From NCBI GenBank assembly GCA_043820105.1, contig JBDREC010000001.1, positions 1-64,000 of the forward strand: DNA of 64,000 nt. Reading direction: 5' to 3'. Positions 11,446 through 47,926 of the stretch are shown one piece after another. The DNA is from Pseudomonadota bacterium (lineage in GTDB: Bacteria; Bdellovibrionota_F; JAHFAK01; JBDREC01). The notes below the pieces were generated by a model. It saw only the letters and a list, made by a program, of their open reading frames with translations. It was not told the origin of the DNA and did not search any database. The position numbers and the translations under genes were made by a program. Numbering within the stretch: position 1 is the first letter of the stretch; each line of letters starts with the position of its first letter.

Positions 11446-12713
11446 CCTTCAAGCTCCTTAAATAAAGTTGAGGTTTGTCTTTTAAAAATAGCGATTCCAG
11501 ATAGCATGGCGCCAAACAGGACTGCCAATAATCCTGGAATAAAGCCAATAAAAAAACTTGTTGTTGTTATTTGGGCACGAATCACATTTGACATCAATAA
11601 ACTTGAGCCTTTAACCATGTCAGAAATGTCAAAACCAACTTCTTGCAAATAATATGAAAATCCCAGGCCAATGGAAGTGCCAATTATCGAACCAACAATA
11701 CCAATGAGTAAAGATTCGTAAATAAGTGTTTTATAAACACCTGTTTTTGATTCACCAATAGCAAGACGCACTCCCATTTCTCCGTATCTTCTTATTCCAG
11801 ACATAAGGCCAGTGTTCCATAGCACTATTGACATTGAAATAAGAAAAATCAAAACAACAAGATAAGAAGAATATCCATAAAACTCCAACATAGTACCTAA
11901 ATCATTTTGATCTTTAAGTGCAAGCATAACTGGCGAAAAATCTTCTTCCTCTGAATATTTATTGTTAAAACTTGCAACTAATTTTTCAGCTTTTTTATCA
12001 TCATATAACATATTTTTAAAAAAGCCTAAAATTTCACCTGCTCCGTCATCCATATATAAAGCGCTTTGCACATCACTAATATCTGCGATCAAAGCTCCTC
12101 TATCCATTACTTCCACGCCAAAATTAATGGTTCCTGTTATTTTAAAATTATAAATAGCCATGCTGCCATTTGCTGTTGAGCTAATCAAAGTGGCAACATC
12201 CCCAATGTTTGCTTTCATTTTTTCTCTAAATTTTTCAGTGATTAAAATTTCACCTCGGTTTTTGGGCAACTTTCCTTTTACTAATGCTTTTGAAATATTT
12301 AAGCGTTTCAACTCATTACTTGAAGGATTAAATAGATCCATTGCTACACCAACGACTGGCCCTTGATCCCGAGTTTCACCCTTTTCATCAGGGAAATCGA
12401 GAAGGCCGCCAAATTTGATTCTTGGAGAAAAATCAATATCTGGATGTTCTTTTTTAAGATCTTCGAGCAAACTTGATACATTTACTAATCCAAAATCATT
12501 AGGCATTTGATTTGATATCTTCTTGTACGCGTTTGTCATTATCTTCACATGTCCTGTTTCAAAAACTGCATTTGTTGAAATCAGATCAGACATAAAACCA
12601 TTTAGATAGCTATACATAAGGGTTGAAACCATTACTCCCATAAAAATTATTATAATTGGGAAAAAAGATCTGTTTCGGTCTCGAATTAAACCCTTTAACA
12701 AAAAGCTAAGCAT
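11442..12713 (-). CDS. ABC transporter permease, FtsX/LolE-like
   Basis: N-terminal TM, large periplasmic loop, RRYGEMGVRLAIG, C-terminal TMs. Confidence 0.9.
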   Translation of the reverse strand: MLSFLLKGLIRDRNRSFFPIIIIFMGVMVSTLMYSYLNGFMSDLISTNAVFETGHVKIMTNAYKKISNQMPNDFGLVNVSSLLEDLKKEHPDIDFSPRIKFGGLLDFPDEKGETRDQGPVVGVAMDLFNPSSNELKRLNISKALVKGKLPKNRGEILITEKFREKMKANIGDVATLISSTANGSMAIYNFKITGTINFGVEVMDRGALIADISDVQSALYMDDGAGEILGFFKNMLYDDKKAEKLVASFNNKYSEEEDFSPVMLALKDQNDLGTMLEFYGYSSYLVVLIFLISMSIVLWNTGLMSGIRRYGEMGVRLAIGESKTGVYKTLIYESLLIGIVGSIIGTSIGLGFSYYLQEVGFDISDMVKGSSLLMSNVIRAQITTTSFFIGFIPGLLAVLFGAMLSGIAIFKRQTSTLFKELEG

Positions 12714-13903
12714 TAGTAATTCCCCCTTAAAGCGTTCGTTGGTTCCATCTTTGATATTTTCCTGGTTGGCAGGTAACTGACTATTATTACTGTCATTGAA
12801 AGAATTGAAGTTGTAGTTAATATTAATGCCAATGAGTAAGTTGGGTAAAGTGCTGAACCTAATGCAATTCCAAAGTTGTCTGTTCCTTCTGGCATTGGAA
12901 TGCCTTTGACTGAAGTTAAAATGAGCAATGGGATTCCATAAATGGCGCCAAAAACCCAGGCAAAGATTCCAAACATAACTCCTTCTAAAGTAAAAAGCTT
13001 AATGACGCCAAATCTTGTCATTCCAAGAGCCATTAGCGTTCCAATTTCTTTTCGTCTTCTGAAAATTGACAAAACTTGTGTGTCAAAAATCGCAAGCAGT
13101 GCCATTATAAGAAACAAGGAATACATAATAGTTCCACCAATCTGTTTTTGTTTAACCATTTTGGTGATCTCTTTTAATAAAAAAGCCTGGCTTTTATATA
13201 TAAAATTTCCATGATCCATAAAACTTGTAACATAATCTTTTTTTAAGATCGCAATAGTTGCCTCCCCTTCCATGTTTAAAATCTTTTGCAAAGAAAAAAG
13301 AGGTAACCAAATCTGGCCATTGTCCATAGATGGAACAATGGTTTTCATAATGTGAATGATTTCAATATCAATAGCATCAAAAACATCATTTTTATCGCGA
13401 AAGCGGGCTGTTACAATATCGCCAACTTTTAAATTTGTTGTTTTGGACATTCTTGTGCCAATAATACCAGGTATCATAAGCAATTCATCTTTCTTGTAAT
13501 TATCTTTCAACTCTTTTATGGGAAAATTAATTATATCCTGTTCTAAGTCTATTCCTTTAAGTATTGCAGCTTGGATGCGACCATCTGGAAAAATTGAGGC
13601 AGGTGCAATTAGAATTGGGGTCGCGTTTTTTTGCTTAATTAGATCTGTTAATTCAGGCGACAATTTTGTATGGCTATCTTTAATTGAAAAAGGATCAAAG
13701 GGATCATATTTAACCGACCAATATTGACCAGCTCCAACTTCTGTATCTATCATTGCTGTTTTAATTTGTGTGCTCATCCCCTCATACATCCCCTGTCCCC
13801 AAATGATTACAACGAATGAAAATGAAAGCGCTAAAACATTTAAAAAACTTCTAAGACGTGCTCCATAAATATTTTTAAATGCTAATTTTAAACTTAAAGT
13901 CAT
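12713..13903 (-). CDS. ABC transporter permease, FtsX/LolC-like
   Basis: RRRKEIGTLMALG motif; C-terminal PTRKISKMEPTNALR. Confidence 0.9.
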   Translation of the reverse strand: MTLSLKLAFKNIYGARLRSFLNVLALSFSFVVIIWGQGMYEGMSTQIKTAMIDTEVGAGQYWSVKYDPFDPFSIKDSHTKLSPELTDLIKQKNATPILIAPASIFPDGRIQAAILKGIDLEQDIINFPIKELKDNYKKDELLMIPGIIGTRMSKTTNLKVGDIVTARFRDKNDVFDAIDIEIIHIMKTIVPSMDNGQIWLPLFSLQKILNMEGEATIAILKKDYVTSFMDHGNFIYKSQAFLLKEITKMVKQKQIGGTIMYSLFLIMALLAIFDTQVLSIFRRRKEIGTLMALGMTRFGVIKLFTLEGVMFGIFAWVFGAIYGIPLLILTSVKGIPMPEGTDNFGIALGSALYPTYSLALILTTTSILSMTVIIVSYLPTRKISKMEPTNALRGNY

Positions 13904-13910
13904 TTTAACC

Positions 13911-14597
13911 TCATTTATCCTCTAAAATTATTCCATCATTCAAAATAATTTTTCTGTTTAAATATTGGATAACTTTATTGTCATGTGTTGCAAATATGAA
14001 AGTTGTTTTAAGTTGCTCATTCAATTTAAGCATCATTTCTAAAATGTTGTGAGAATTTTGAGCATCCAAATTGGCTGTAGGTTCATCAGCTAATACAATT
14101 TTAGGGACTTTAACCATTGCACGCGCTACAGCTACACGCTGACATTCGCCACCTGAGAGCTGCGCTGGTCTTGAATTCACTTTGCTTGTAAGACCGACCC
14201 ATTCAAGAGCATTCATTATCTTTTCTTTTCTCTCCTTGTCAGGAGTTTTAAGCAAAAGCAGTGGAAGCTCAACATTTTCAAAAACAGAATAAAAAGGAAG
14301 AAGATTAAAAGTTTGGAAAATAAAACCAAGCGATTTATTTCGAAGGGAGGCTGATTCTCTATGTTTCATGTTTTCAATATATTTGCCAAGCACTTCAACA
14401 GATCCCGAAGAAGGAATATCGAGTGCTCCAACAATATTTAACAAAGTCGTTTTACCTGAACCGCTTGGACCAACAAGTCCTAAAAATTCACCTTCATTGA
14501 TTGAAACATTTATATTCTTTAACGCTGTAAAACTGCCTCCTCCAATAGGAAATGATTTGGTAAGTTCTTTTGTCACAATAATTTGACTTGATTCCAT
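13911..14597 (-). CDS. ABC transporter ATP-binding protein (LolD/MacB-like)
   Basis: Walker A GPSGSGKT, signature LSGGECQR, Walker B VLADEPT, H-loop ATHD. Confidence 0.95.
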   Translation of the reverse strand: MESSQIIVTKELTKSFPIGGGSFTALKNINVSINEGEFLGLVGPSGSGKTTLLNIVGALDIPSSGSVEVLGKYIENMKHRESASLRNKSLGFIFQTFNLLPFYSVFENVELPLLLLKTPDKERKEKIMNALEWVGLTSKVNSRPAQLSGGECQRVAVARAMVKVPKIVLADEPTANLDAQNSHNILEMMLKLNEQLKTTFIFATHDNKVIQYLNRKIILNDGIILEDK

Positions 14598-14607
14598 GAT
14601 TTCTCCA

Positions 14608-15738
14608 TTAGTGGTTAAAAATAATCATTAGTTGTAATCCTAATCCTGAATATGCTGTATTGCTCGTTAAAAGTGAACTTGAATCAGATGAAGGCAAGTA
14701 AAACAAACTTAAATCAAAAATCCAGTTGTCATAGGTTCTGCTCCATCCTAAATATTGATAATACTGTCTTTGCTCATGTAGATAATATCCTTGTGTTCTT
14801 ATTGAATCTATAATTCCGATTGGATAACTTATTGAATAAGCAGAGATGTTGTTTTTTAAATCAAATCCAAATATATCCAGTGATGAATATGAAAACATAT
14901 GTTCTAATAAAAAATAAATTCCTTGCCCAACATTAAAAGTGTAATCACCACCTAGTGTAAGCATTTTGGTAAAGTTATAAGGAAAAAGTGTTGTTTCTTT
15001 TGTGCTATTTAAAACTAATTCAAACCATGCCCCAATTGTAAAATCAAAACGTCCATCTAAAGCGAAGCGATTTTCCCAATAATCGCTTTCGGTTTGTAAT
15101 GATTCATCTTCAATTAGAATGTTAGAGTCGACTTTTCTCGCGTGATAAGTTGCTGCTATCTCACTATTAAAAACTGGATATTGAAAACGTCCGCCAAATT
15201 CAGGATACCTTGACTTTGTTGGAAGAGCTTCGTAACCTTTTATATCAGTATTGCCGTAAAATCCCCAAACCCAGATATTTGCATTATTAAGAAAATAATA
15301 TTTGTTAACAAATGACCACACACCATTTGTCAAAGCAAGTGGATCATTAGTATCAACAGAATCAAACCAGCGTAAAGATCTAAGTATTTGAGCAGGACCA
15401 AAATTGATCTGCTGAAGCCCAATTTTGGATTCAAATTGAGTCGTTAAAAAGCTTAATTGCAATCGGTAAAGATCTAGATCATAATTTTCATTGATAATAT
15501 AAGCATTTACTGAAGTATCAAAAGCAAGTTTATAATCTCTCCATACATTTTGTGAAAAGTTTATTCGAGGGATATAGCGAATTCCCCCATTAAAAGAATA
15601 CTCATCATTTTCATAACTGCCGATTCCCCAACCAGAAGCCTGCCCAGATAGAAAATCATAATTAGCGCACAAATTTGTGCCCAAGCTTAGAAGAAATATA
15701 AATAAAACAAATATTTTTTTATATTTCAATAGTTGCAC
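14608..15738 (-). CDS. Probable outer-membrane beta-barrel protein of the ABC/LolA-like cluster
   Basis: Signal peptide, aromatic-rich alternating strands, IGLQQINFG; first gene of the operon. Confidence 0.65.
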   Translation of the reverse strand: MQLLKYKKIFVLFIFLLSLGTNLCANYDFLSGQASGWGIGSYENDEYSFNGGIRYIPRINFSQNVWRDYKLAFDTSVNAYIINENYDLDLYRLQLSFLTTQFESKIGLQQINFGPAQILRSLRWFDSVDTNDPLALTNGVWSFVNKYYFLNNANIWVWGFYGNTDIKGYEALPTKSRYPEFGGRFQYPVFNSEIAATYHARKVDSNILIEDESLQTESDYWENRFALDGRFDFTIGAWFELVLNSTKETTLFPYNFTKMLTLGGDYTFNVGQGIYFLLEHMFSYSSLDIFGFDLKNNISAYSISYPIGIIDSIRTQGYYLHEQRQYYQYLGWSRTYDNWIFDLSLFYLPSSDSSSLLTSNTAYSGLGLQLMIIFNH

Positions 15739-15802
15739 CTAAAATTTAAGAAACTTCTTTAATTTATAGCCCTACAAGATACATTTGTAAAACAAATAAA
15801 AT

Positions 15803-15901
15803 AACAATCTCAAAATATTGTTATTATAAACCTCTAATACTAATACGAGTTGCTTTATTTTAATGTCCTTTGTAGTGGAGGGGCTTGTCCCCTCCTTATT
15901 T
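15803..15901. repeat. Left arm of a ~100-bp inverted repeat containing a GTAG-type REP
   Basis: 15858-15901 is the exact reverse complement of 16332-16375 (44 bp); REP core GTAGTGGAGGGGCTTGTCCCCTCC at 15872-15895. Confidence 0.9.
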
Positions 15902-15976
15902 GTAAAAAGTAGGTCAAAAAGTAGGTCAGGCCTTGTCGCCGAAATGACAAACAGTCGGAAGTTCAGAAAAATCAAA

Positions 15977-16050
15977 TGCGCCCAGGAGGATTCGAACCTC
16001 CAACCTTTAGATTCGTAGTCTACTGCACTATCCAGTTATGCTATGGGCGC
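15977..16050 (-). tRNA. tRNA-Arg(ACG)
   Basis: Minus strand GCGCCCATAGCATAACTGGATAGTGCAGTAGACTACGAATCTAAAGGTTGGAGGTTCGAATCCTCCTGGGCGCA; cloverleaf, anticodon ACG, T-loop GTTCGAATC; CCA not encoded. Confidence 0.97.
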
Positions 16051-16331
16051 ATTGTTGTTTGTAAGTTTCTTATATTAAAAGCATTATTTATAAGTCAAGT
16101 GATTTTTGTTTTAAGCATGTTTGTTAAAACGTTATTTCTTGTTAATGCGCTATTGATGCCAAAAAAATGGAATTTTTAATTATCCCATTTTATTAAGACA
16201 TTAGGTCAACATTGTTTGCATTTTATATTTTAAAACAACAATTTTTTAACCTTTTTGTAAAGATATTTTTTTTCTAAGCACGGGGACAGACAGGGGTTTA
16301 AAGAATGTATATCAATAAAACGATTTTCTTT

Positions 16332-16424
16332 AAATAAGGAGGGGACAAGCCCCTCCACTACAAAGGACATTAAAACAAACCAACTCGTATGAGAGGTTTA
16401 TAAAAATAATGTTTTGAGATTGTT
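16332..16424. repeat. Right arm of the inverted repeat (REP on minus strand)
   Basis: GGAGGGGACAAGCCCCTCCACTAC at 16338-16361; similarity to the left arm continues to ~16424. Confidence 0.9.
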
Positions 16425-16476
16425 GATAAATTGCGAAATCCTTTTTCAAATGATTCTGCAATTTATCAACAATCTC
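16416..16476. repeat. Perfect 19-bp-stem hairpin
   Basis: GAGATTGTTGATAAATTGC (16416-16434) pairs with GCAATTTATCAACAATCTC (16458-16476). Confidence 0.85.
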
Positions 16477-16483
16477 CACTTAT

Positions 16484-16514
16484 AAAAAAAGCCCTAGGTT
16501 TCCTAACCTAAGGC
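16484..16514 (-). terminator. Intrinsic terminator
   Basis: Minus strand GCCTTAGGTT-AGGA-AACCTAGGGC followed by T7. Confidence 0.85.
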
Positions 16515-16549
16515 AATTTGCTTTGGGGGGCGTATATTATGAAACTATT
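16484..16549 (-). ncRNA. Candidate sigma-54-dependent small RNA (~66 nt)
   Basis: Lies between the sigma-54 core (16561-16575) and the terminator, with no ORF on this strand; 5' end inferred from -12 spacing. Confidence 0.6.
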
Positions 16550-16560
16550 AAGATACTATT

Positions 16561-16647
16561 TCAACTTGTGTGCCAATTCAGCACAAAACTTTTTAATCTA
16601 TCATTACATTAACTTATGCTCGCCAAGGGTAAATTCTTTTTTTCAAA
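16561..16647 (-). promoter_or_regulatory. Sigma-54 promoter plus upstream box
   Basis: TGGCAC-ACAAG-TTGA (16575-16561); TTTGAAAAAAAGA (16647-16635); spacing 69 bp. Confidence 0.75.
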
Positions 16648-16704
16648 CATAACACATTATTCCAATAAATCATGAAATATGGGATACTACTGGGGTATTT
16701 TTAT

Positions 16705-19700
16705 TTAAAACAAAAGCTTTCCAAACTCAATCTTCCCATAATTTATTTTAGTAAAAATATCAAAAAACTGATCAAAGCTAATGACAATATCCTCATTGGG
16801 TCGCCATGGATTTACAACTATCACCATTTTTCTATGTCTATCAACTGATTTTATTGAATACCCATGAAAATAAACCCATTTTTTACCATGCCTATAGAAA
16901 AAGATATCTTCATTAGTATCATCTCCACCCTTGTGATTTTGCTTGCCCTTTGGAGCTGCTTCAGTTGAAGCCGTAGCTGCATATCTTCCATTGTGAAACC
17001 TTGACAAAAATTTCTCGGCTAACCTTTTATAATAAATCTTACTTGCTGAACTAAGGGGCTTTGTTCCTGAGCCAATTTTTCTGTATTTAAGATTTTTGCC
17101 AAAAAAGATCTCAAAAACCTGCCCAGTTGATACTGTTTCAAGTTTTGCTCTATCAATATTTCCAAATCTTTCAAGCATAATAACTGCCTCTAATACTTTC
17201 CACCCCTCACTTCCACTTGGCGGATATAAGGTTTCCCTAGTATCAATTTCTCCTGTTTTTGAATATAAAAGTGGCTTTCCAAAATTCTTATTTTGATGAG
17301 CTTGGATGTCTTGAGGTAAAACCCTTATAGTTCTTCCATGACTTAAACCAAATGGAATTTTAACATCAAAACTTCCATCGTGATTTTTTCTTATTGAATA
17401 CTGCATTAAAGCCATAAAGTTTGGATCTTTATCAAAGCTATTAAAAAGGGCAATAATATTACAGTTACCAACATTGGCTTGCCTTGGAGGGTTAAGAAAA
17501 AAGCCATTAACCTCTGCATGAGATGACATAACTCGATCATCCATTCCAGCTTCTGCTTTAAATCTTCTTCTTGCAAACCTTGCCCTAACAGACGCGATAG
17601 TATGGGTCATGCCTATTTCAGAACTTTCAATTAAGCTTTTTGGCCAAACTGTTTTATATGAACTTAGGCCTTTGACAAACTCTACAGGCTCGTCTTCATT
17701 TGCTTGGCGATATGTAACTTGCCCTCTTTTTTCTTCCTTTATTAAGCGCCTTGCTATCATCTTTCCATCTTCAGAAATATAAATGATTTCAAAACCTTCT
17801 TCCACTACATCCGAACTTGGCCTTCTTACATAAACATGATCAAAAAGAGCAAAGCCATCATACTCTTTTAAAGGAGAATCAGCAAGCACAGCTGGCATCC
17901 TAAGCGCTGTTTGATTTGCTCCAGTATCATCAATAAAAAACCCAATATCTTCTGTTGATAATAAGACTTCTGAACTTACCTCACTTTTATCCATAGGAAG
18001 TTTTTCAGGAAATATTCTGCGAATTGTTTTTAAAAAAGCTTTCCTTGCTTTTGAAATTTTAAAATCAATCCTTATCCTGGTTCTTCCAAAATGCAAAATA
18101 TTACCTGGTTTTATTTTTACTCTTTGTCCATATTCAATATTTTCAACATGCCCATCTTCATAAATAATATATAAGTCATGTCTTGCATTTAGATTCTCTA
18201 CAAAAACTTGATCCAATTGTCGTGAAAACCTAAGATGTTCAGAAGAAATTTGACTATCTGAAAAATCTAGATTCCCAATTAGCTCTCCCCTTCCAATAAC
18301 AAGAGGTTTTTTTTCTTTTAATCTTCTTGAAAGATCAAAATTCTGAACCCAAGGACTTAACTCAGAAAGTTTTGCTGTTCTGAAAGCAGGAATAGCTCCA
18401 GGTCTTTGATCCTTTTCTGCAGACTTATAATATAATGTAGCGCTATCACCTTCAATATATGATATTATGAAAACTTGTGGCTGATTATTGACTCTAACAT
18501 AATCACCAATTGATAATCTTTCTATTCTAAAAGGCACTCTAAATTCCAGGTCTCCAATTTTAATCACATCATAAGCATCAACTAAAACCCACCCATCTGA
18601 TTCTCTAATCTTTTCACCATTTATAAACGTTCCATTTTTTGATCCTCTATCCATAATTTCATATTGATTTTCATAAAAACGTATTGCGGCATGTTTTCTG
18701 CTTATCAAAATAGAAGCAAGCTCAAAAGACTCAAATACAGCCCCTTGAGACAGATAACAAATTTCACCTTCATCAAACTTATTTAAATCCCTTAAAACTG
18801 GAACATATTTTTTTACTTGAGAGGCATCAATAACTCTCATTGAAAAACCATCTTCTCCCTCAGAAAAAATACCATTATCAAAACGGGAAACAACTAAATC
18901 ATTATCACCAATTCTTTCCATAACTTCCCAAACCCCTGTTTCTCCTTGAACCTTAACCTGATCTGCAACATTAAAGTTATGATCTGCTCTTGTAATCGGA
19001 TCAGCCTCTGAGGGGGCAGGGGCAGCTGCTTCTCTTTGAGCAAAAGCTTGCACTTCCTCTGGGTGTGTTAAAGCTGCCTGCATTGCCAAAGTTTCTTCAT
19101 AAACCTTTTCAAGTTCAGCCCTTGCTTCTGCATCAAGTAATGGAAAAATTCTAGCAAGAACTTTTGCTTGTTTATTGACTAATTCTAAGGCTATTTTTAC
19201 TCGAAGCTCTTCACTTTTTTCAAGCTCTAATCTTTGCCTTAGTTCTCTTGTCTGACTATCTAGAAGCTCAAGCTCTGCTTTTGCTTGTTTCTGACGAATC
19301 GCAAGTACAAAACGTGTACTTAAGGGCTTCACAAGCCTACCTGCTATTCTATAGCTAAGCACTGTAGAAAAAGTACCTTTAACAGAATCTACAGCAACAT
19401 TAAGATTTATGATATCTTTTATAGATTCAACTTTCTTAACTTCTCCATTAACAATTACATAAACATCATCAGCACCCATGGCGTAGCGAGCGGCTTCAAC
19501 CGTCAATCCACCCATACCCATACCTGTCATTTCAGCTAAAAAAGAAATACCATGTCCAAATGTTGAATCTGTAATATAACCTTTTTGCATCGCAATTTGT
19601 GCTGAATGAGTTAAACTTTTTAAAACACCCAAACTAACGACTGTGTGAGAATATTCGCTTACAAGTTCTTTGCCTGATTCAAATGAAACTGTATCTGCAG

Positions 19701-21315
19701 CTTGTGCAAGAGATTGAGAAACACTTCTTCCTTCTAAAAGGTCTTCAGCCAAATCAACTGCAGCCACTATTTGCCTGTGGCCAAGCAGAAAAATTAAACT
19801 CTCAACTGAAAGGCCTATTATTGCTGAACTAAAAGTTGCACCAAGTGTAGCAACTCCAAAGATGGCTCCGCCCATATAACTGCCAATTAAAGATCCAAAA
19901 GGTCCTGCTACTGTAAAAAGTCCAACCATTAATGTAGTAGTAACTGCAAATTTTGTGCTGGCTTTAAGACATTGTCTAAATCTTTCTTTTCTTTTTATAT
20001 ACTCCCAACCAGCATCATGTATAATCCCATCAGGACCGACATGAAGCTTTCCAAATGAATTTTGATAGGCCTTTTGCGCCTGACTGGCCTTTTCCTCAAT
20101 TTTTGAAAGCAGTTCTTCTTTGGCTAATGTCTCATCAGGATCCTGTAAAAACTCATAAGCTTTTATAAGCTTTTGCTTTGCATTTATTAGTCCATTATAA
20201 GTTTCCATTGTAGACACATTATGATCTTTATATTTTCTTGCTAAAGATAAGGCCTCTTCTATTTCTACAATTTGCATAATCATTGATATAAAAGAAGATC
20301 CCAAATAAAAATATCCTGATGCCTCTTCAAAATTACTTTTTTCATGTGACTCAATGGCTAGGTCATAATATAGGTAGATACCTTTTAAAATTGGAACTAA
20401 AAACTTTATATTTTCTTCTGAAGTCTTTGATAAATCCCCACTTGTCGATATCTCTTCTAAAAAAGAAATGTTTTGAGCTCTTTGAGATCCAAGAGCCAAT
20501 ATGTTAAATAATAAAAGCAGTCTGTCTATTTGATTCGCGTCAACAATTGATTCTCCGTCTTTTAGTTTTTCAAACAATAATTTGAGCTTCTCTACTTCAA
20601 GCGAATATTTTTCCTTAACTGTGCCAGGAATCAATTCTAAATAAGCAGCAAGTTTTGCTTCTTTTTTTATTATAGAAACTTTTTCTTCATCTATTTCCAA
20701 AAACTGCTGATAATTTTCAGGAAGCTTAACAAATATTTCATTATAGTAATAGTTTGCGCCAAGCTCATTTTTCACATCATAAATAAATTTCAAAAACATT
20801 TTTTTATTGTCAGTTACTTCAATCATTTTTTGAAATAAATAAAGACCAGTATAAGAATCAATTTGAAATATATTTGAAAACAATAAAGCAGCCATAGAAA
20901 TATCGATATTTTTTAACTCATCAACAACAATACCTGCTCTTAAAAACTGAGTAGTTGAATTGAATGTTTGTCGTGTTAAAATCAGTTCTTTTACAAAAAT
21001 CATACTAACAAATTCACATCTTTTCTTTGAATCAAATTCTTGTAAGACAATCATTGGTGGATTATTTATATATTCATAAACATCTTGCCTTGAAATGCTT
21101 TCTTTATTAGCATCAATTTTTGCAAGTTTTAAAGCATCAGCTCTATCAGCTCCTAGTCTAGTGCTAATAATCTTTAATCCTTCTGAATACTTTTCTTTTA
21201 ACTCTAACCTTTCATTATTATTAAAGATATCAAATGCATATAATATTCCTGGAGAAATGGCATAAAAAAACAAAAATATTGCAAAGAATATGATTTTTTT
21301 GATTTTGCTCAACAT
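16705..21315 (-). CDS. Large secreted/membrane protein with two FHA domains and a C-terminal papain/calpain-like cysteine peptidase domain
   Basis: Signal peptide from ATG 21315 (GGGGAG RBS); ISRKHAAI...DRGSKNGTFING and IGRG...ISSEHL...ENLN (FHA); QANVGNC, HGYSI, VVNPW (C/H/N triad). Confidence 0.75.
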   Translation of the reverse strand: MLSKIKKIIFFAIFLFFYAISPGILYAFDIFNNNERLELKEKYSEGLKIISTRLGADRADALKLAKIDANKESISRQDVYEYINNPPMIVLQEFDSKKRCEFVSMIFVKELILTRQTFNSTTQFLRAGIVVDELKNIDISMAALLFSNIFQIDSYTGLYLFQKMIEVTDNKKMFLKFIYDVKNELGANYYYNEIFVKLPENYQQFLEIDEEKVSIIKKEAKLAAYLELIPGTVKEKYSLEVEKLKLLFEKLKDGESIVDANQIDRLLLLFNILALGSQRAQNISFLEEISTSGDLSKTSEENIKFLVPILKGIYLYYDLAIESHEKSNFEEASGYFYLGSSFISMIMQIVEIEEALSLARKYKDHNVSTMETYNGLINAKQKLIKAYEFLQDPDETLAKEELLSKIEEKASQAQKAYQNSFGKLHVGPDGIIHDAGWEYIKRKERFRQCLKASTKFAVTTTLMVGLFTVAGPFGSLIGSYMGGAIFGVATLGATFSSAIIGLSVESLIFLLGHRQIVAAVDLAEDLLEGRSVSQSLAQAADTVSFESGKELVSEYSHTVVSLGVLKSLTHSAQIAMQKGYITDSTFGHGISFLAEMTGMGMGGLTVEAARYAMGADDVYVIVNGEVKKVESIKDIINLNVAVDSVKGTFSTVLSYRIAGRLVKPLSTRFVLAIRQKQAKAELELLDSQTRELRQRLELEKSEELRVKIALELVNKQAKVLARIFPLLDAEARAELEKVYEETLAMQAALTHPEEVQAFAQREAAAPAPSEADPITRADHNFNVADQVKVQGETGVWEVMERIGDNDLVVSRFDNGIFSEGEDGFSMRVIDASQVKKYVPVLRDLNKFDEGEICYLSQGAVFESFELASILISRKHAAIRFYENQYEIMDRGSKNGTFINGEKIRESDGWVLVDAYDVIKIGDLEFRVPFRIERLSIGDYVRVNNQPQVFIISYIEGDSATLYYKSAEKDQRPGAIPAFRTAKLSELSPWVQNFDLSRRLKEKKPLVIGRGELIGNLDFSDSQISSEHLRFSRQLDQVFVENLNARHDLYIIYEDGHVENIEYGQRVKIKPGNILHFGRTRIRIDFKISKARKAFLKTIRRIFPEKLPMDKSEVSSEVLLSTEDIGFFIDDTGANQTALRMPAVLADSPLKEYDGFALFDHVYVRRPSSDVVEEGFEIIYISEDGKMIARRLIKEEKRGQVTYRQANEDEPVEFVKGLSSYKTVWPKSLIESSEIGMTHTIASVRARFARRRFKAEAGMDDRVMSSHAEVNGFFLNPPRQANVGNCNIIALFNSFDKDPNFMALMQYSIRKNHDGSFDVKIPFGLSHGRTIRVLPQDIQAHQNKNFGKPLLYSKTGEIDTRETLYPPSGSEGWKVLEAVIMLERFGNIDRAKLETVSTGQVFEIFFGKNLKYRKIGSGTKPLSSASKIYYKRLAEKFLSRFHNGRYAATASTEAAPKGKQNHKGGDDTNEDIFFYRHGKKWVYFHGYSIKSVDRHRKMVIVVNPWRPNEDIVISFDQFFDIFTKINYGKIEFGKLLF

Positions 21316-21338
21316 TTTTATTAAATGCTCCCCTATTT

Positions 21339-21368
21339 TAAGTCGCAAGTCGTATGTCATAAGTCGTA
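21339..21368. repeat. Heptamer tandem repeat (TAAGTCG-like)
   Basis: taagtcg caagtcg tatgtca taagtcg. Confidence 0.65.
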
Positions 21369-21539
21369 AATAATGCAAATCCTATACCATTTAAATGCAT
21401 TTGTTTTTATCGTTTAATATCAATAATATATATCAATAAAACAGGCTTTCTTTTTTTCAAAACCAGGAAAACACAAAGGATTTAAAAAAAAATAAAAAAT
21501 GGCTATTTCAAGTCGCAGAAAAAAAATAAAAAGAAAAAC

Positions 21540-21634
21540 TTCCCAAATTATAAAAAAAGAAAATCAAGCAATTTCACCTAACACTTTATTTTCTTTAACC
21601 AATCTCTTAACGTGCCCTTTGGAACAAGAAATGC
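21540..21634 (+). promoter_or_regulatory. Sigma-54-like promoter plus upstream box (variant)
   Basis: TTCCCAAATTATAAAAAAAGA (21540-21560) and TGGAAC-AAGAA-ATGC (21620-21634); spacing 69 bp. Confidence 0.6.
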
Positions 21635-23476: not shown

Positions 23477-23571
23477 TTCCCAAATTTGAAAAAAAGAAAG
23501 CAAAACACCTCGACATAACTGTTTGTTTTAATTGAGCTATTAGATTGTTGCTGAAATGGCACCAACTTTGC
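23477..23571 (+). promoter_or_regulatory. Sigma-54 promoter plus upstream box
   Basis: TTCCCAAATTTGAAAAAAAGA (ends 23497); TGGCAC-CAACT-TTGC (23557-23571); spacing 69 bp. Confidence 0.85.
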
Positions 23572-24600: not shown

Positions 24601-24695
24601 TTCCCTTTTTGAAAAAAAAGATTTTCACATAACACCCGGCAAGCTTTTATTTTCATTATCAAATGCAAACCAATTCACCTTGGCACACAATTTGA
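24601..24695 (+). promoter_or_regulatory. Sigma-54 promoter plus upstream box
   Basis: TTCCCTTTTTGAAAAAAAAGA (24601-24621); TGGCAC-ACAAT-TTGA (24681-24695); spacing 70 bp. Confidence 0.8.
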
Positions 24696-28130: not shown

Positions 28131-28215
28131 TCCTTATCTATGCAATAGTAAAAAATGGTTTTAGGGGAGCATATTTTCAAATATCCTAAAACCAAAAAAA
28201 AGCAAGGAGAGGAAA

Positions 28216-29808
28216 ATGAAAACATTGGCATTTCATATTAATCTACTAATATTATTAATCATTTTTCCAGTTTTTATAATATCATGTTCAAGCGGAGTAA
28301 CCCAGCTTACAAAACCAGATACAATGGATTGTGCAGACTGCACAGATGATACAGGATCTGGTGGAGAAGGTGAAAACACTGATCAAGATCCAAATCTTGA
28401 TATAGATACTGATTTAGATGGAATAATTGATCAAAATGATAATTGTATTGATACTCCCAATGAAGATCAACTCGATTCAGATGAAGATGGTCTTGGAGAT
28501 GCTTGTGATGATGAAAATGATTTAGATGGAGAAAATGACACTGTAACTTACAGTCTTAATGACATGGAACTTTTTTATTCAAATGGAAACTCTGAATCAT
28601 TAAAATATGAAAATACCCTTAGTAAAGTAATAATTACAAACCTAACAAGAGCTGGTCAAATGGGAGCATATGCCATATCTGCTAATTCTACAGCTGAAGG
28701 AAAGTTATTTAGATATTCATTTTCAAGCCCATCTTCAATGAAAGAGGATTTTTCACAGGAAATAAACACAGACATAAACCCAACAGATATAGCTATTTGT
28801 AATATAGATGGAAATCCATATACAGTAGTTGCAACAGATTCAACAACTGAAAACCAAGCAAGAATATTCATCTATAACAATAATGGTAACCTAAACAGCT
28901 CAGGTGCTGATGACTTACCTGATTCAGTTTATATCTCAAGCATTGCATGTGGAGATGCAGATGGAGATGGAGATGATGAAGTATTAGCAGGCACTATGTC
29001 CACTGGAAATTTTAGCTCAAAAACGATCCAAAGATGGTATCTATATGATACTCCAAAGCCTGAGGCCACAATAGCTCTAGTCACAATAGCAGCAGGTGGT
29101 GGACAATCCACAAGTGATCCTAATTATATTGGTGGCACATGGGGAACAAATTCCTCTGTAACCAGCGTTGCAATTGGAGATATCGACAATAATGGTTTTT
29201 CTGAAATAGCAATTGGTAGAAAAGGTGGAGCTGATATAAACGCAAAGCTTTTTATTTATGAACTTAATCCTGATAATTCTTTATACGAACAAAAATTTAC
29301 AATGCCTCTAGGCTCCTTTTTTATAAAAGACATTGCTTATGGCTTTCAAAATGGCGAAAATGTTATTGCCGTTGCCTCAAGTTCAGGCACACAAGGCGAA
29401 AATAGAATTCAAATATTTTCATATGAAAATGCTACTTATAATTTTGTAAAATCATATGCAAGTGAATGGGAAAATAACATTGTTACATCAAGCATTGCAT
29501 TTGGTGATATTGATGGAAATGGTAGTGAAGAGCTGGTAGCTGGAAGATACACTTATTATTCAAGTTCCATTCAAGATTTCAATAATTCAAGTGATAAAAG
29601 ATGGGTCTTATATGATGACAACACCTCAGCTGAAATCTTTGCTGGTGGTGGAGAAACAGATGCCTGGGATGAAAATATTTGGGTAACTGATGTTTCAATG
29701 GGTGACTTAAATGGTGATGGAATAAACGAACTTGCAGTCTCCCTTAATAGTAATCCAAGCCAAGATAAGATTATTTTTTACACACCTGACCTAACAGAAA
29801 ATCAATAG
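28216..29808 (+). CDS. Lipoprotein with thrombospondin type-3 repeat and FG-GAP-like propeller
   Basis: Lipobox IISC; DNCIDTPNEDQLDSDEDGLGDACD; GDADGDGDDEV, GDIDNNGFSEI, GDIDGNGSEEL, GDLNGDGINEL. Confidence 0.85.
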   Translation: MKTLAFHINLLILLIIFPVFIISCSSGVTQLTKPDTMDCADCTDDTGSGGEGENTDQDPNLDIDTDLDGIIDQNDNCIDTPNEDQLDSDEDGLGDACDDENDLDGENDTVTYSLNDMELFYSNGNSESLKYENTLSKVIITNLTRAGQMGAYAISANSTAEGKLFRYSFSSPSSMKEDFSQEINTDINPTDIAICNIDGNPYTVVATDSTTENQARIFIYNNNGNLNSSGADDLPDSVYISSIACGDADGDGDDEVLAGTMSTGNFSSKTIQRWYLYDTPKPEATIALVTIAAGGGQSTSDPNYIGGTWGTNSSVTSVAIGDIDNNGFSEIAIGRKGGADINAKLFIYELNPDNSLYEQKFTMPLGSFFIKDIAYGFQNGENVIAVASSSGTQGENRIQIFSYENATYNFVKSYASEWENNIVTSSIAFGDIDGNGSEELVAGRYTYYSSSIQDFNNSSDKRWVLYDDNTSAEIFAGGGETDAWDENIWVTDVSMGDLNGDGINELAVSLNSNPSQDKIIFYTPDLTENQ

Positions 29809-46168: not shown

Positions 46169-47812
46169 CTATGCCTCAGGTTCACTGGGCTCTTCATCTT
46201 CACTGTCATCTGCTTGCTCTTCAATAAAAGACATTTCTCTGTATTGTAGATAAAAATCAATATGAGCACGGGCTCCATCTTCTTTTCCTTCAAAGCCCAT
46301 TCCAATAATTGCAAAGTCAAAACTAGACCCTTGTGCAAGGCCTTTGGCTAAAATATCCATTTCAATGTCTTGAGGTGTAACTTCAACATCTCTTGATTCT
46401 GGCCATTTTCCACCACTTGAATCTGTTCCAATATAATACTGTGTAAAGGAATTATCTAAAAAACTATTAACTGGATTATCAAGGACAGTTTTTCTATGTA
46501 ATTTTATTAAACCAATGGCAGCGTTATCTTGTGTGTCTTCAGCTTGGGCGCCACCACCATTTCCCGATCTTGCTCTAAATCCTGTGACAATTTTTGTTGA
46601 AGAAGCAGAAGGTGCTTCACTTTTATCAATAAAAGTTTCTGGGCCAGCATTGCCTTCAGAATCATCCCAAGTTTCATCACTATTTCCAACAAGAGTACAT
46701 CCTCTTTCTTCTGTTTCATATTCTCCTGAACCATTCATATCATTGCCATATGAATCTTGATCACCAGAGTCAGCTCCTCTGTATATTATTCCTGTTGATC
46801 CAAAAGTTCCATCAGATTCGATTATAACATATCTAACGTGAACACATTGTATATCTCTTGAATCATGATCAGTTGTGTCATTTCCAGCATTTTCTGTTCC
46901 ATGAGTTTCAATTGCAATTCCCTGGATAACTGAATTGTAAAGGACATTTTCTTCTGCTGCTTCCTCATCATCATGAATGAAGATATTTGTATTTGCTTGA
47001 GCATGAGAATAACTGGTGACAGGTTCGGTTTCTATATTATCAAACATATCAAACATAGCTTCTGTATCTCCATCACAATCTTTTTGATCATGAGCTGTTT
47101 CAGTATCGTAATTCCAGCAAGAGCTTTTCCATGTATAATCTTCATGAAGGTCAAAGTGACCTGCTTGGACTCCTTCACCTTCTTGCTCGCAATTAGCTAA
47201 ACATGCGCTTTCATCAAACAATGGATCTTCAGCGCCTGTACAATCGCAAGTTGCAATGCAAGCAAGCGCTGTCCCAAAACCTGCTGTATATTGTTCCTGC
47301 ATTTCTTCATATCTATCTGTTTCTGGAATTGAAGCAGCATCTTCAGGATCAGTTCCATAGTATTCTTCAATTACATCATATACATTATCATCATCAGAAT
47401 CTGCCATCGATTCTCCGTAACCGTTATCAACACCACTTAAAAGTTCAATAAATTCTTCTGAACATACACCAAATTCAGCAGCTGCATCACAGAGGTCAAC
47501 ATAGATTGCTGAATAGAGGTCATCAGCGCAAATAGCATCAACAAGTGAACCCCAGGTGTCAGACCAGCAAGCCATTCTTTCTGTATCTAAACATTCAAAA
47601 TCTTCACCACAGGTTGAGTATGCTGTTGTTAGACATTCTGTTAAACTTATTTCTGCGTCTTCTACACCTGTGATAATTCCACCAAAGCCAGATCCATTTA
47701 AAATTTCATCTTCAATGGCTGGTGTTACTTCTTTGCGATCTTTCTTTGCGCAGGAATTAAGCATTGCCGTGGACAGGCAAATTATTGAAAATATTATGAT
47801 ATATCGTTTCAT
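46169..47812 (-). CDS. Acidic Cys-rich lipoprotein
   Basis: True start ATG 47812 (MKRYIIIFSIICLSTAMLNSC) with AAGGGG RBS; DSDDDNVYD..EEYYGTDP repeat. Confidence 0.8.
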   Translation of the reverse strand: MKRYIIIFSIICLSTAMLNSCAKKDRKEVTPAIEDEILNGSGFGGIITGVEDAEISLTECLTTAYSTCGEDFECLDTERMACWSDTWGSLVDAICADDLYSAIYVDLCDAAAEFGVCSEEFIELLSGVDNGYGESMADSDDDNVYDVIEEYYGTDPEDAASIPETDRYEEMQEQYTAGFGTALACIATCDCTGAEDPLFDESACLANCEQEGEGVQAGHFDLHEDYTWKSSCWNYDTETAHDQKDCDGDTEAMFDMFDNIETEPVTSYSHAQANTNIFIHDDEEAAEENVLYNSVIQGIAIETHGTENAGNDTTDHDSRDIQCVHVRYVIIESDGTFGSTGIIYRGADSGDQDSYGNDMNGSGEYETEERGCTLVGNSDETWDDSEGNAGPETFIDKSEAPSASSTKIVTGFRARSGNGGGAQAEDTQDNAAIGLIKLHRKTVLDNPVNSFLDNSFTQYYIGTDSSGGKWPESRDVEVTPQDIEMDILAKGLAQGSSFDFAIIGMGFEGKEDGARAHIDFYLQYREMSFIEEQADDSEDEEPSEPEA

Positions 47813-47865
47813 AATTTTGACCCCTTGAAAAAATGTATAAAAATTCAGTTTCAATGGGATATAGA

Positions 47866-47880: not shown

Positions 47881-47888
47881 AGTGGGAA

Positions 47889-47926
47889 AAGTGGTAAGTG
47901 GTAAGTGGTAAGTGGTAAGTGGTAAG
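47889..47926. repeat. Perfect heptamer tandem repeat (AAGTGGT)x5
   Basis: Five exact units plus AAG. Confidence 0.95.

Follow-up and report, generated by a model that had tools for sequence, protein, structure and literature searches.

What is transcribed from a complete sigma-54 promoter that faces no protein gene? The question is raised by positions 16,484 to 16,647 of the first 64,000 nucleotides (nt) of contig JBDREC010000001.1, from a Bdellovibrionota_F bacterium of a nearly orphan, uncultured lineage (assembly GCA_043820105.1). In what follows, the window is this whole 64,000-nt stretch, to which the minus-strand coordinates refer, and C-numbers denote contigs of the same assembly (3.8 Mb, 113 contigs, 92.9% complete), the window lying on C1. 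A preliminary description had proposed here an undescribed stand-alone sigma-54-type unit for a short non-coding RNA, with a seed complementary to a Shine-Dalgarno (SD) sequence and an AUG; a set of six paralogues appears to bear this out. We read the locus, with a probability of roughly 65%, as the gene for a ~66-nt trans-acting small RNA (sRNA), transcribed with sigma-54 and one of six siblings, which would block the 30S ribosomal subunit at translation start regions. Its predicted parts are as follows.

16647-16635, minus strand: box A, TTTGAAAAAAAGA, starting 72 nt before the sigma-54 core, with a 59-nt spacer between
16575-16560, minus strand: sigma-54 core TGGCAC-ACAAG-TTGAA (-24/-12), written TGGCACACAAGTTGAA
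16549, minus strand: predicted +1, an A, placed from sigma-54 geometry 12 nt past the -12 position and 11 nt after the core
16549-16484, minus strand: predicted sRNA of 66 nt, from the fold and the terminator
16549-16515, minus strand: 35-nt 5' stretch, AAUAGUUUCAUAAUAUACGCCCCCCAAAGCAAAUU, unpaired
16545-16534, minus strand: seed core GUUUCAUAAUAU, the anti-AUG part, complement of AUAUUAUGAAAC and identical in six of six siblings
16532-16525, minus strand: C-run CGCCCCCC, the anti-SD part, complement of G-run SD sequences, its CCCC kept in six of six siblings
16514-16491, minus strand: terminator hairpin GCCUUAGGUU-AGGA-AACCUAGGGC with a 10-base-pair (bp) stem
16490-16484, minus strand: U7, the end of the intrinsic terminator (whole terminator 16514-16484)

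Promoter, box, hairpin and U7 all lie on the minus strand where the preliminary description had placed them. The 69 nt that it gave between box and core are recovered when the count starts at the G of the box; from box start to core start the distance is 72 nt. The promoter points, as had been claimed, at no open reading frame (ORF): none of at least 40 amino acids (aa) begins on the minus strand of the window between promoter and terminator. A consensus scan calls the hairpin at 16514-16491 a terminator, and the predicted RNA folds with a minimum free energy (MFE) of -16.3 kcal/mol, the first 17 nt of its 5' end being unpaired ahead of the hairpin and U7. Box A is presumed to be the site of an enhancer-binding protein, which 72 nt upstream of the core would act as the activator.

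The sigma-54 promoter of the window is beyond chance, since its motif is over-represented with respect to shuffled sequence. With at most one mismatch, TGGCAC-N5-TTG occurs 29 times in the window (10 of them exact) against 12.5 +/- 3.6 in shuffles, and none of 100 shuffles reaches 29. Box A stands at the same distance upstream of seven of the ten exact cores, which belong to six protein genes (23619, 24786, 28216, 29961, 34797 and 38622) and to the sRNA unit. The -12 variant TTGAA is likewise found before protein genes, in the cores at 24681 and 38564. Genome-wide, 14 of the 142 strict sigma-54 cores have box A 70-73 nt upstream, and 25 have a second box, B (TTTAACATAAAA), 71-75 nt upstream. 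Both boxes are A-rich and non-palindromic; the extended form of box A reads tTCC-N4-5-TTTGAAAAAAAGA (window examples on the plus strand at 23485, 24609, 28044, 29833, 34621 and 38492), and the near-fixed box-core spacing of 70-75 nt is unusual for enhancer sites. The genome encodes one rpoN and yields 33 Sigma54_activat domain matches (~30 activators). About ten of the 33 fall in open frames of 1650-2000 aa (e.g. C27:11540, C90:168091, C10:100023), very large for enhancer-binding proteins.

A BLAST search of positions 16400-16700 against the genome's own assembly, followed by pattern searches and alignment, finds six siblings: the window unit at 16575(-), C10:114454(-), C90:46304(+), C98:6182(+) and two copies in tandem, C105:542(-) and C105:229(-). 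Their common layout is TGGCAC-N5-xTG(C/A), ~17 nt, the invariant GUUUCAUAAUAU, 1-3 nt, CCCC, a hairpin and a U-run; model R1 matches all six with 50.8-66.8 bits (E 4e-13 to 4e-18). A box is located exactly 72 nt upstream of TGGCAC in six of six. The window copy, C10 and C90 have box A there, C98 and the two C105 copies box B. As siblings with the same seed stand behind two different boxes, they are probably fed by at least two activators, provided that the boxes are activator sites.

Pairwise identity among the siblings is 1.00 over the seed 12-mer, 0.77 over the next 7 nt and 0.26 over the following 40 nt, which hold the terminator; it is 0.78 in the box, 0.41 in the spacer between box and core, and 0.36 further upstream. 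The drop from 1.00 in the seed to 0.26 in the terminator indicates that selection preserved the 5' part of the transcript and required a terminator to follow, whatever its sequence. The sibling RNAs would measure 62-69 nt, and in single folds their seed is largely unpaired. For the six RNAs aligned with MAFFT, RNAalifold predicts no consensus pairs, since their terminators are unrelated and cannot be aligned.

Three lower-scoring R1 matches in the same genome disclose a second subfamily, with the same promoter-proximal sequence and a different seed. It counts five units, three of which have a sigma-54 core (C24:8181, C80:20888 and C10:21458); the two coreless copies are C90:207247, where the core has been displaced by a longer version of a palindromic repeat described below (C90:~207110-207240), and C30:52627, with CAA instead of CAU. 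The seed of this subfamily reads CUUUUUC-AUAUUCCUCCUCCUU-GAAAAAG, and each unit has its own terminator. In its fold an 8-bp stem carries a 13-nt loop that exposes CCUCCUCC. Within this loop lies CCUCCUU, the anti-SD found at the 3' terminus of the organism's own 16S ribosomal RNA. Each subfamily has its own seed, and both seeds are in-register mirror images of a start region.

In all nine promoter-bearing units TGGCAC is unchanged, a terminator hairpin of 10-15 bp is followed by a U-run, and the seed is unpaired or in a loop; their MFE ranges from -16.3 to -24.2 kcal/mol (z -1.8 to -8.0). A slightly looser core scan gives 20 cores with a terminator within 260 nt, among which the nine units cluster tightly at 62-73 nt. 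Further strict cores, of unrelated sequence, have a terminator 71-105 nt on, at C102:16523(-), C108:4370(-), C28:31819(-) and C12:77984(-); they are possible additional sigma-54-driven sRNAs. A row of three on C80 (C80:17897-20985) comprises the gene of a sigma-54 activator, a 420-aa gene driven by sigma-54 and a second-subfamily unit, and the 420-aa gene, with its GGGGG SD, is among the best predicted targets.

Could the conserved element work as DNA? A promoter-proximal protein site (e.g. the direct repeat AATAG-N6-AATAG around +1), or a decoy titrating sigma-54 holoenzyme or enhancer-binding proteins, would leave the transcript functionless, and the block from -11 to +5 (AATAGTATCTTAATAG), mostly upstream of +1, is indeed kept in five of the six siblings and in the second subfamily. 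Yet the part that is 100% conserved lies downstream of +1; the two seed versions are each complementary, in register, to an SD-spacer-AUG region; and every copy ends in a strong terminator of unrelated sequence, superfluous for a pure DNA site. We consider a DNA-level role quite unlikely.

The sRNA reading assigns the conserved part a direct use. The unpaired 5' seed (GUUUCAUAAUAU, 1-3 nt, CCCC) would act as the antisense of a G-rich SD, a spacer, AUG and a second codon AAA-C, and since it is the antisense image of a whole initiation region, pairing at the ribosome-binding site (RBS) is its most likely action. The seed is predicted to pair across the RBS of messenger RNAs (mRNAs) with a GGGG-type SD and an AUGAAAC start, so that 30S binding would be blocked; many such mRNAs come from sigma-54-driven genes for secreted or surface proteins. 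What is generally expected of a trans-acting base-pairing sRNA is present at the sequence level: a promoter, a terminator, no conserved ORF, and a conserved, single-stranded, complementary seed. If pairing needs a chaperone, a candidate is a 243-aa protein (C19:36059-36790, plus strand) with an N-terminal cold-shock domain (57.6 bits), whose C-terminus holds the only Hfq-type match of the genome (31.6 and 33.9 bits).

Duplex energies were calculated on the region from -30 to +21 of 2943 gene starts, taken from a simple home-made rule of ORF plus SD; the sigma-54 genes of the comparison are the 63 with a strict core at most 160 nt upstream, and the others number 2870. The seeds form stronger duplexes with start regions than with internal gene windows, and none of 60 seed shuffles reaches the real mean (63 sigma-54 genes with 300 of the 2870 others). 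For the window seed, the mean is -11.1 kcal/mol on sigma-54 genes vs -9.0 on the others (Mann-Whitney U, p=1.3e-4); for the C98-type seed, it is -13.6 vs -10.3 (p=1e-8). The top 40 predicted targets include 5 with a strict core, where 0.86 are expected (p=0.0014). Among the top sigma-54 targets, the encoded proteins carry FG-GAP, TrAA12-like or TSP3 repeats or match no known family. Three candidate sites lie in the window.

47806-47824, minus strand: start of the 547-aa gene 47812 (GGGGUCAAAAUUAUGAAAC), behind a core at 47880-47865; 10 bp + 5 bp and -19.9 kcal/mol with the window seed
28164-28182, plus strand: leader of the box-A gene 28216 (FG-GAP protein), candidate target of the box-B siblings; -27.2 kcal/mol with the C98-type seed, -15.8 with the window copy
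21315-21333, minus strand: SD region of a large FHA-domain gene, candidate target of the box-B siblings; 11 bp (UAGGGGAGCAU), -21.0 kcal/mol with the C98-type seed, -11.9 with the window copy

The preliminary description had named two targets, both behind sigma-54 cores. The 47812 start reads GGGG-UCAAA-AUUAUGAAAC exactly as it had stated, follows a sigma-54 core and is a good site. The 21675 start also reads UUGGAGAAAUUAUGAAA as given; its core is looser (TGGAAC-N5-ATGC, 21620-21634) and its duplex, at -9.1 kcal/mol, equals the background (genome mean -9.0), on which ground we reject it as a target. Several neither-box sigma-54 genes have tandem heptamer arrays (e.g. CTTACCA, GCTTACA) adjoining the core or within the 5' leader, among them the 47812 gene (47881-47925, minus strand); further examples are at C88:58890, C75:13891, C24:1469 and C75:20723.

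The seed might also serve an RNA with another mode of action: it could be a sponge or decoy for another RNA, bind a protein or the 30S subunit, or work as an activator by opening structured leaders such as those at 28216 or C4:30940. The two strongest sites are indeed off true start codons. The site at C4:30940 (-30 to -32 kcal/mol) is the strongest among ungapped near-matches to the seed complement; it lies in a minus-strand region (C4:30840-30990) where a sigma-54 core is followed by a 5' untranslated region (UTR) with a pseudo start region (G6-CAUAUUAUGAA, opening an upstream ORF of 16 aa), upstream of a 799-aa gene. Over ~25 nt this UTR is nearly an antisense image of the sRNA 5' end, and it may act as a sponge or be one of the main targets. 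The 28216 site, a 16-nt perfect complement as read from the printed duplex, falls within what looks by eye like a leader hairpin (GGUUUUAGG...CCUAAAACC), and the second-subfamily loop copies the 16S anti-SD. Against these stand the natural spacing at which the seed covers both SD and AUG, and the in-register near-matches at real gene starts, by manual count about 11 of the 28 non-self sites that agree with the seed complement at 15 or more of 19 positions. The CsrA-type AGGA loop noted in the preliminary description finds no support: as read from the folds of the six siblings, only the window copy has AGGA in its terminator loop, a single motif where RNAs of the CsrB/RsmY type repeat GGA in their loops, and a search of the 92.9%-complete genome revealed no CsrA gene. 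We regard another RNA mode as very unlikely.

Nor is the unit likely, from its neighbourhood, to be a mere appendage of a protein gene. The FHA-domain gene named above, on its 5' side, has its stop at 16705 and ends 130 nt upstream of the sRNA promoter; the next same-strand features after the unit are a repeat, a second hairpin and a transfer RNA (tRNA), with no protein gene.

16418-16476, both strands: 59-bp palindromic repeat with ~19-nt inverted ends, GAGATTGTTGATAAATTG ... CAATTTATCAACAATCTC, directly 3' of the sRNA terminator
16338-16356, minus strand: second GC-rich terminator-like hairpin, downstream of the sRNA
15976-16051, minus strand: tRNA-Arg(ACG), downstream of the sRNA

The repeat, which has further copies at C10:25164, C90:207132 and C90:207220, looks like a small element of the miniature inverted-repeat transposable element (MITE) type. 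In the closest sibling (C10), a tRNA is located ~700 nt upstream. Three DNA runs over 12000-21500 gave short, mostly identical fragments, with listed differences in the tRNA only and none at the sRNA, a result that bears on neither expression nor variation.

In such a place the hairpin could be the terminator of the FHA gene, or part of a cis-acting leader or attenuator, with the promoter an orphan remnant of a duplication. No other terminator-like site is found between the FHA stop and 16514, the unit at C24:8181 lies 38 nt upstream of a same-strand gene, and a recent duplication is suggested by the 77% identity of C1 and C10 over 137 nt. The window hairpin may well also end FHA-gene transcripts; this leaves unexplained the six copies in six different contexts, their seed invariant and their flanks near random, and the next same-strand features after the window unit include no protein gene. 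As a general reading, the leader or attenuator is rejected because three of the nine units (C90:46304, C98:6182 and C80:20888) face a convergent gene. There is only a slim chance that the unit is not an independent gene. A small plus-strand protein (MKLLRYY...) starting at the ATG opposite the seed, with the G-run as a strong SD, a spacer and ATG AAA (window ORF of 37-44 aa, 16518-16652), is hardly credible, as the conservation of TGGCAC would be hard to understand in a coding sequence and the sequences past the first ~7 codons (fixed by the conserved DNA) are unrelated, with frames of 37, 69, 3, 18, 3 and 71 aa in the siblings (two stopping after 3 codons) and 77, 32 and 19 aa in the second subfamily.

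A number of observations weigh against the sRNA reading as well. At the promoter, the -12 element of the window copy is TTGA, not TTGC, and a sigma-70-like match, TTGAAA-17-CATAAT (10/12; 16536-16564, minus strand), overlaps the core with its -12 element and the seed, so the real 5' end could fall past the anti-AUG part. The window copy also has the weakest fold of the units (z -1.78; 11 of 200 shuffles equal it). The pairing calculations depend on gene starts from a home-made ORF caller and on energies that leave out target accessibility, and the enrichment of sigma-54 genes among the targets is confounded: AUGAAA starts make up 40-50% of these genes vs 15.6%, and their SD sequences are stronger (more GGAG/GAGG). 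Model R1 matched none of 60 other genomes, 3 of them of the same class, and the 3 nearest genomes (G001-G003) gave no full-length match at E<=1; of their 19 partial, weak matches, the 7 inspected are ordinary sigma-54 promoters or coding DNA. The pattern of promoter plus anti-start-region seed has no match in these 3 genomes. With the first-subfamily seed, it has one hit in a genome collection and two in a metagenome collection, which we attribute to chance, as they lie in unrelated contexts and lack a -12 element or terminator. The preliminary description had suggested looking for promoter and seed in related genomes; the six paralogues, with their invariant seed and unrelated terminators, supply this conservation within the genome itself only and, with no homologue found outside, it rests on paralogues. 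An RNA run containing the stretch was looked for among sequencing runs, and none is listed.

How does the family relate to known sRNAs? Sigma-54-dependent sibling sRNAs are known mainly from Vibrio, where the siblings Qrr1-5 depend on sigma-54 and LuxO, and also on Hfq. The likeness is in the design: several short siblings share one seed, and each has a sigma-54 promoter and a terminator to itself. At the motif level, the promoter test as for the Qrr siblings finds TGGCAC-N5-xTG(C/A) before all six siblings here. The shared seed of Qrr1-5 is described as repressing translation at mRNA 5' regions (10.1101/2021.07.01.450815; PMC4211561). The present siblings differ in that copies with the same seed carry two boxes, TTTGAAAAAAAGA and TTTAACATAAAA, in a seed that spans SD to second codon, and in their host, a nearly orphan lineage rather than a Vibrio. 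The Qrr covariance model matches neither the window, searched at gathering score, nor any of eight unit loci, searched at E<=1.

Transcription of Pxr in Myxococcus also depends on sigma-54. Like the unit studied here, Pxr and a Campylobacter sRNA are stand-alone sRNA genes with a sigma-54 promoter in a sigma-54-rich network; the family differs from them by its higher copy number and by a seed that is the antisense of a full start region. Pxr is described as an sRNA with paralogues and the Campylobacter jejuni one as an RpoN-dependent flagellar sRNA (PMC5568312, PMC11187230). In the cuckoo or alpha-r14 RNAs of Alphaproteobacteria (CcsR1-4, NfeR1), which are multi-copy, it is reported that only the anti-SD CCUCCUCCC is conserved, in loops above variable stems, and that NfeR1 silences by RBS occlusion (PMC4615179, PMC10746234). 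The second subfamily recalls them by its 13-nt loop with CCUCCUCC. They differ in having 2-4 modules with CCUCCUCCC loops, where there is one module here; the window subfamily has a linear 5' seed (CCCC plus anti-AUG), no CCUCCUCCC loop, and a sigma-54 promoter. The best match to Rfam RF02344 (ar14) is a second-subfamily copy at 32.9 bits, against a gathering score of 58.8, part of it aligning to the promoter; the window unit has none.

The Rfam search advised in the preliminary description brought no known family: at gathering score the window contains only the tRNA, no Rfam family matches the units, and eight unit loci searched at E<=1 gave sub-threshold, scattered hits. The window family is a member of neither Qrr nor ar14, and such an sRNA family is not described in the literature searched by full text, supplementary files aside. 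By sequence evidence, it is a new Qrr-like family of sibling sRNAs, and the window element is one predicted member.

Which genes would the siblings control? The preliminary description took the RNA for the post-transcriptional arm of the regulon whose promoter it shares. This is not what the energies suggest: the window copy is driven from box A, and its seed is at background on the starts of box-A genes (mean -8.4 kcal/mol, n=10, p=0.81, vs -9.0 for the background, n=2880). The mean is -10.3 kcal/mol on box-B genes (n=18) and best, -12.3, on sigma-54 genes with neither box (n=35, p=3e-4 vs background). Of the sigma-54 genes with neither box, 26% have a G-run SD sequence, compared with 0% of those with box A or box B and 6.8% of the remaining genes. 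The CCUCCUCC seed has means of -21.9 kcal/mol on box-A genes, -20.9 on box-B genes, -15.1 on those with neither and -12.3 on the background.

Box-A-driven seeds would avoid box-A genes and prefer neither-box genes; box-B-driven seeds would prefer box-A genes; and neither-box units carrying CCUCCUCC would prefer box-A and box-B genes. The eleven units might thus form a layer of RNA cross-talk between sigma-54 regulons, the box of each sRNA differing from that of its best targets. Genes for secreted proteins would start in two dialects, with GGGG-type or GGAGG-type SD sequences, and the two seed classes would be their antisense. This wiring is suggestive, the classes being small and the energy calculations simple, and we hold it to be rather unlikely. 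If true, turning one regulon on would silence the translation of the others, as a mutual-exclusion switch for sets of surface and secreted proteins.

Altogether, the six siblings and their five relatives point to the same design as Qrr in a lineage with three reference genomes in its class. The comparison of paralogues within a genome can thereby replace missing relatives in the annotation of sRNAs in metagenome-assembled genomes. If confirmed, the siblings would show in compact natural form how several signalling inputs can meet in a single RNA seed, and would add a post-transcriptional layer to an unusually large sigma-54 network, with 142 strict cores and ~30 activators in 3.8 Mb.

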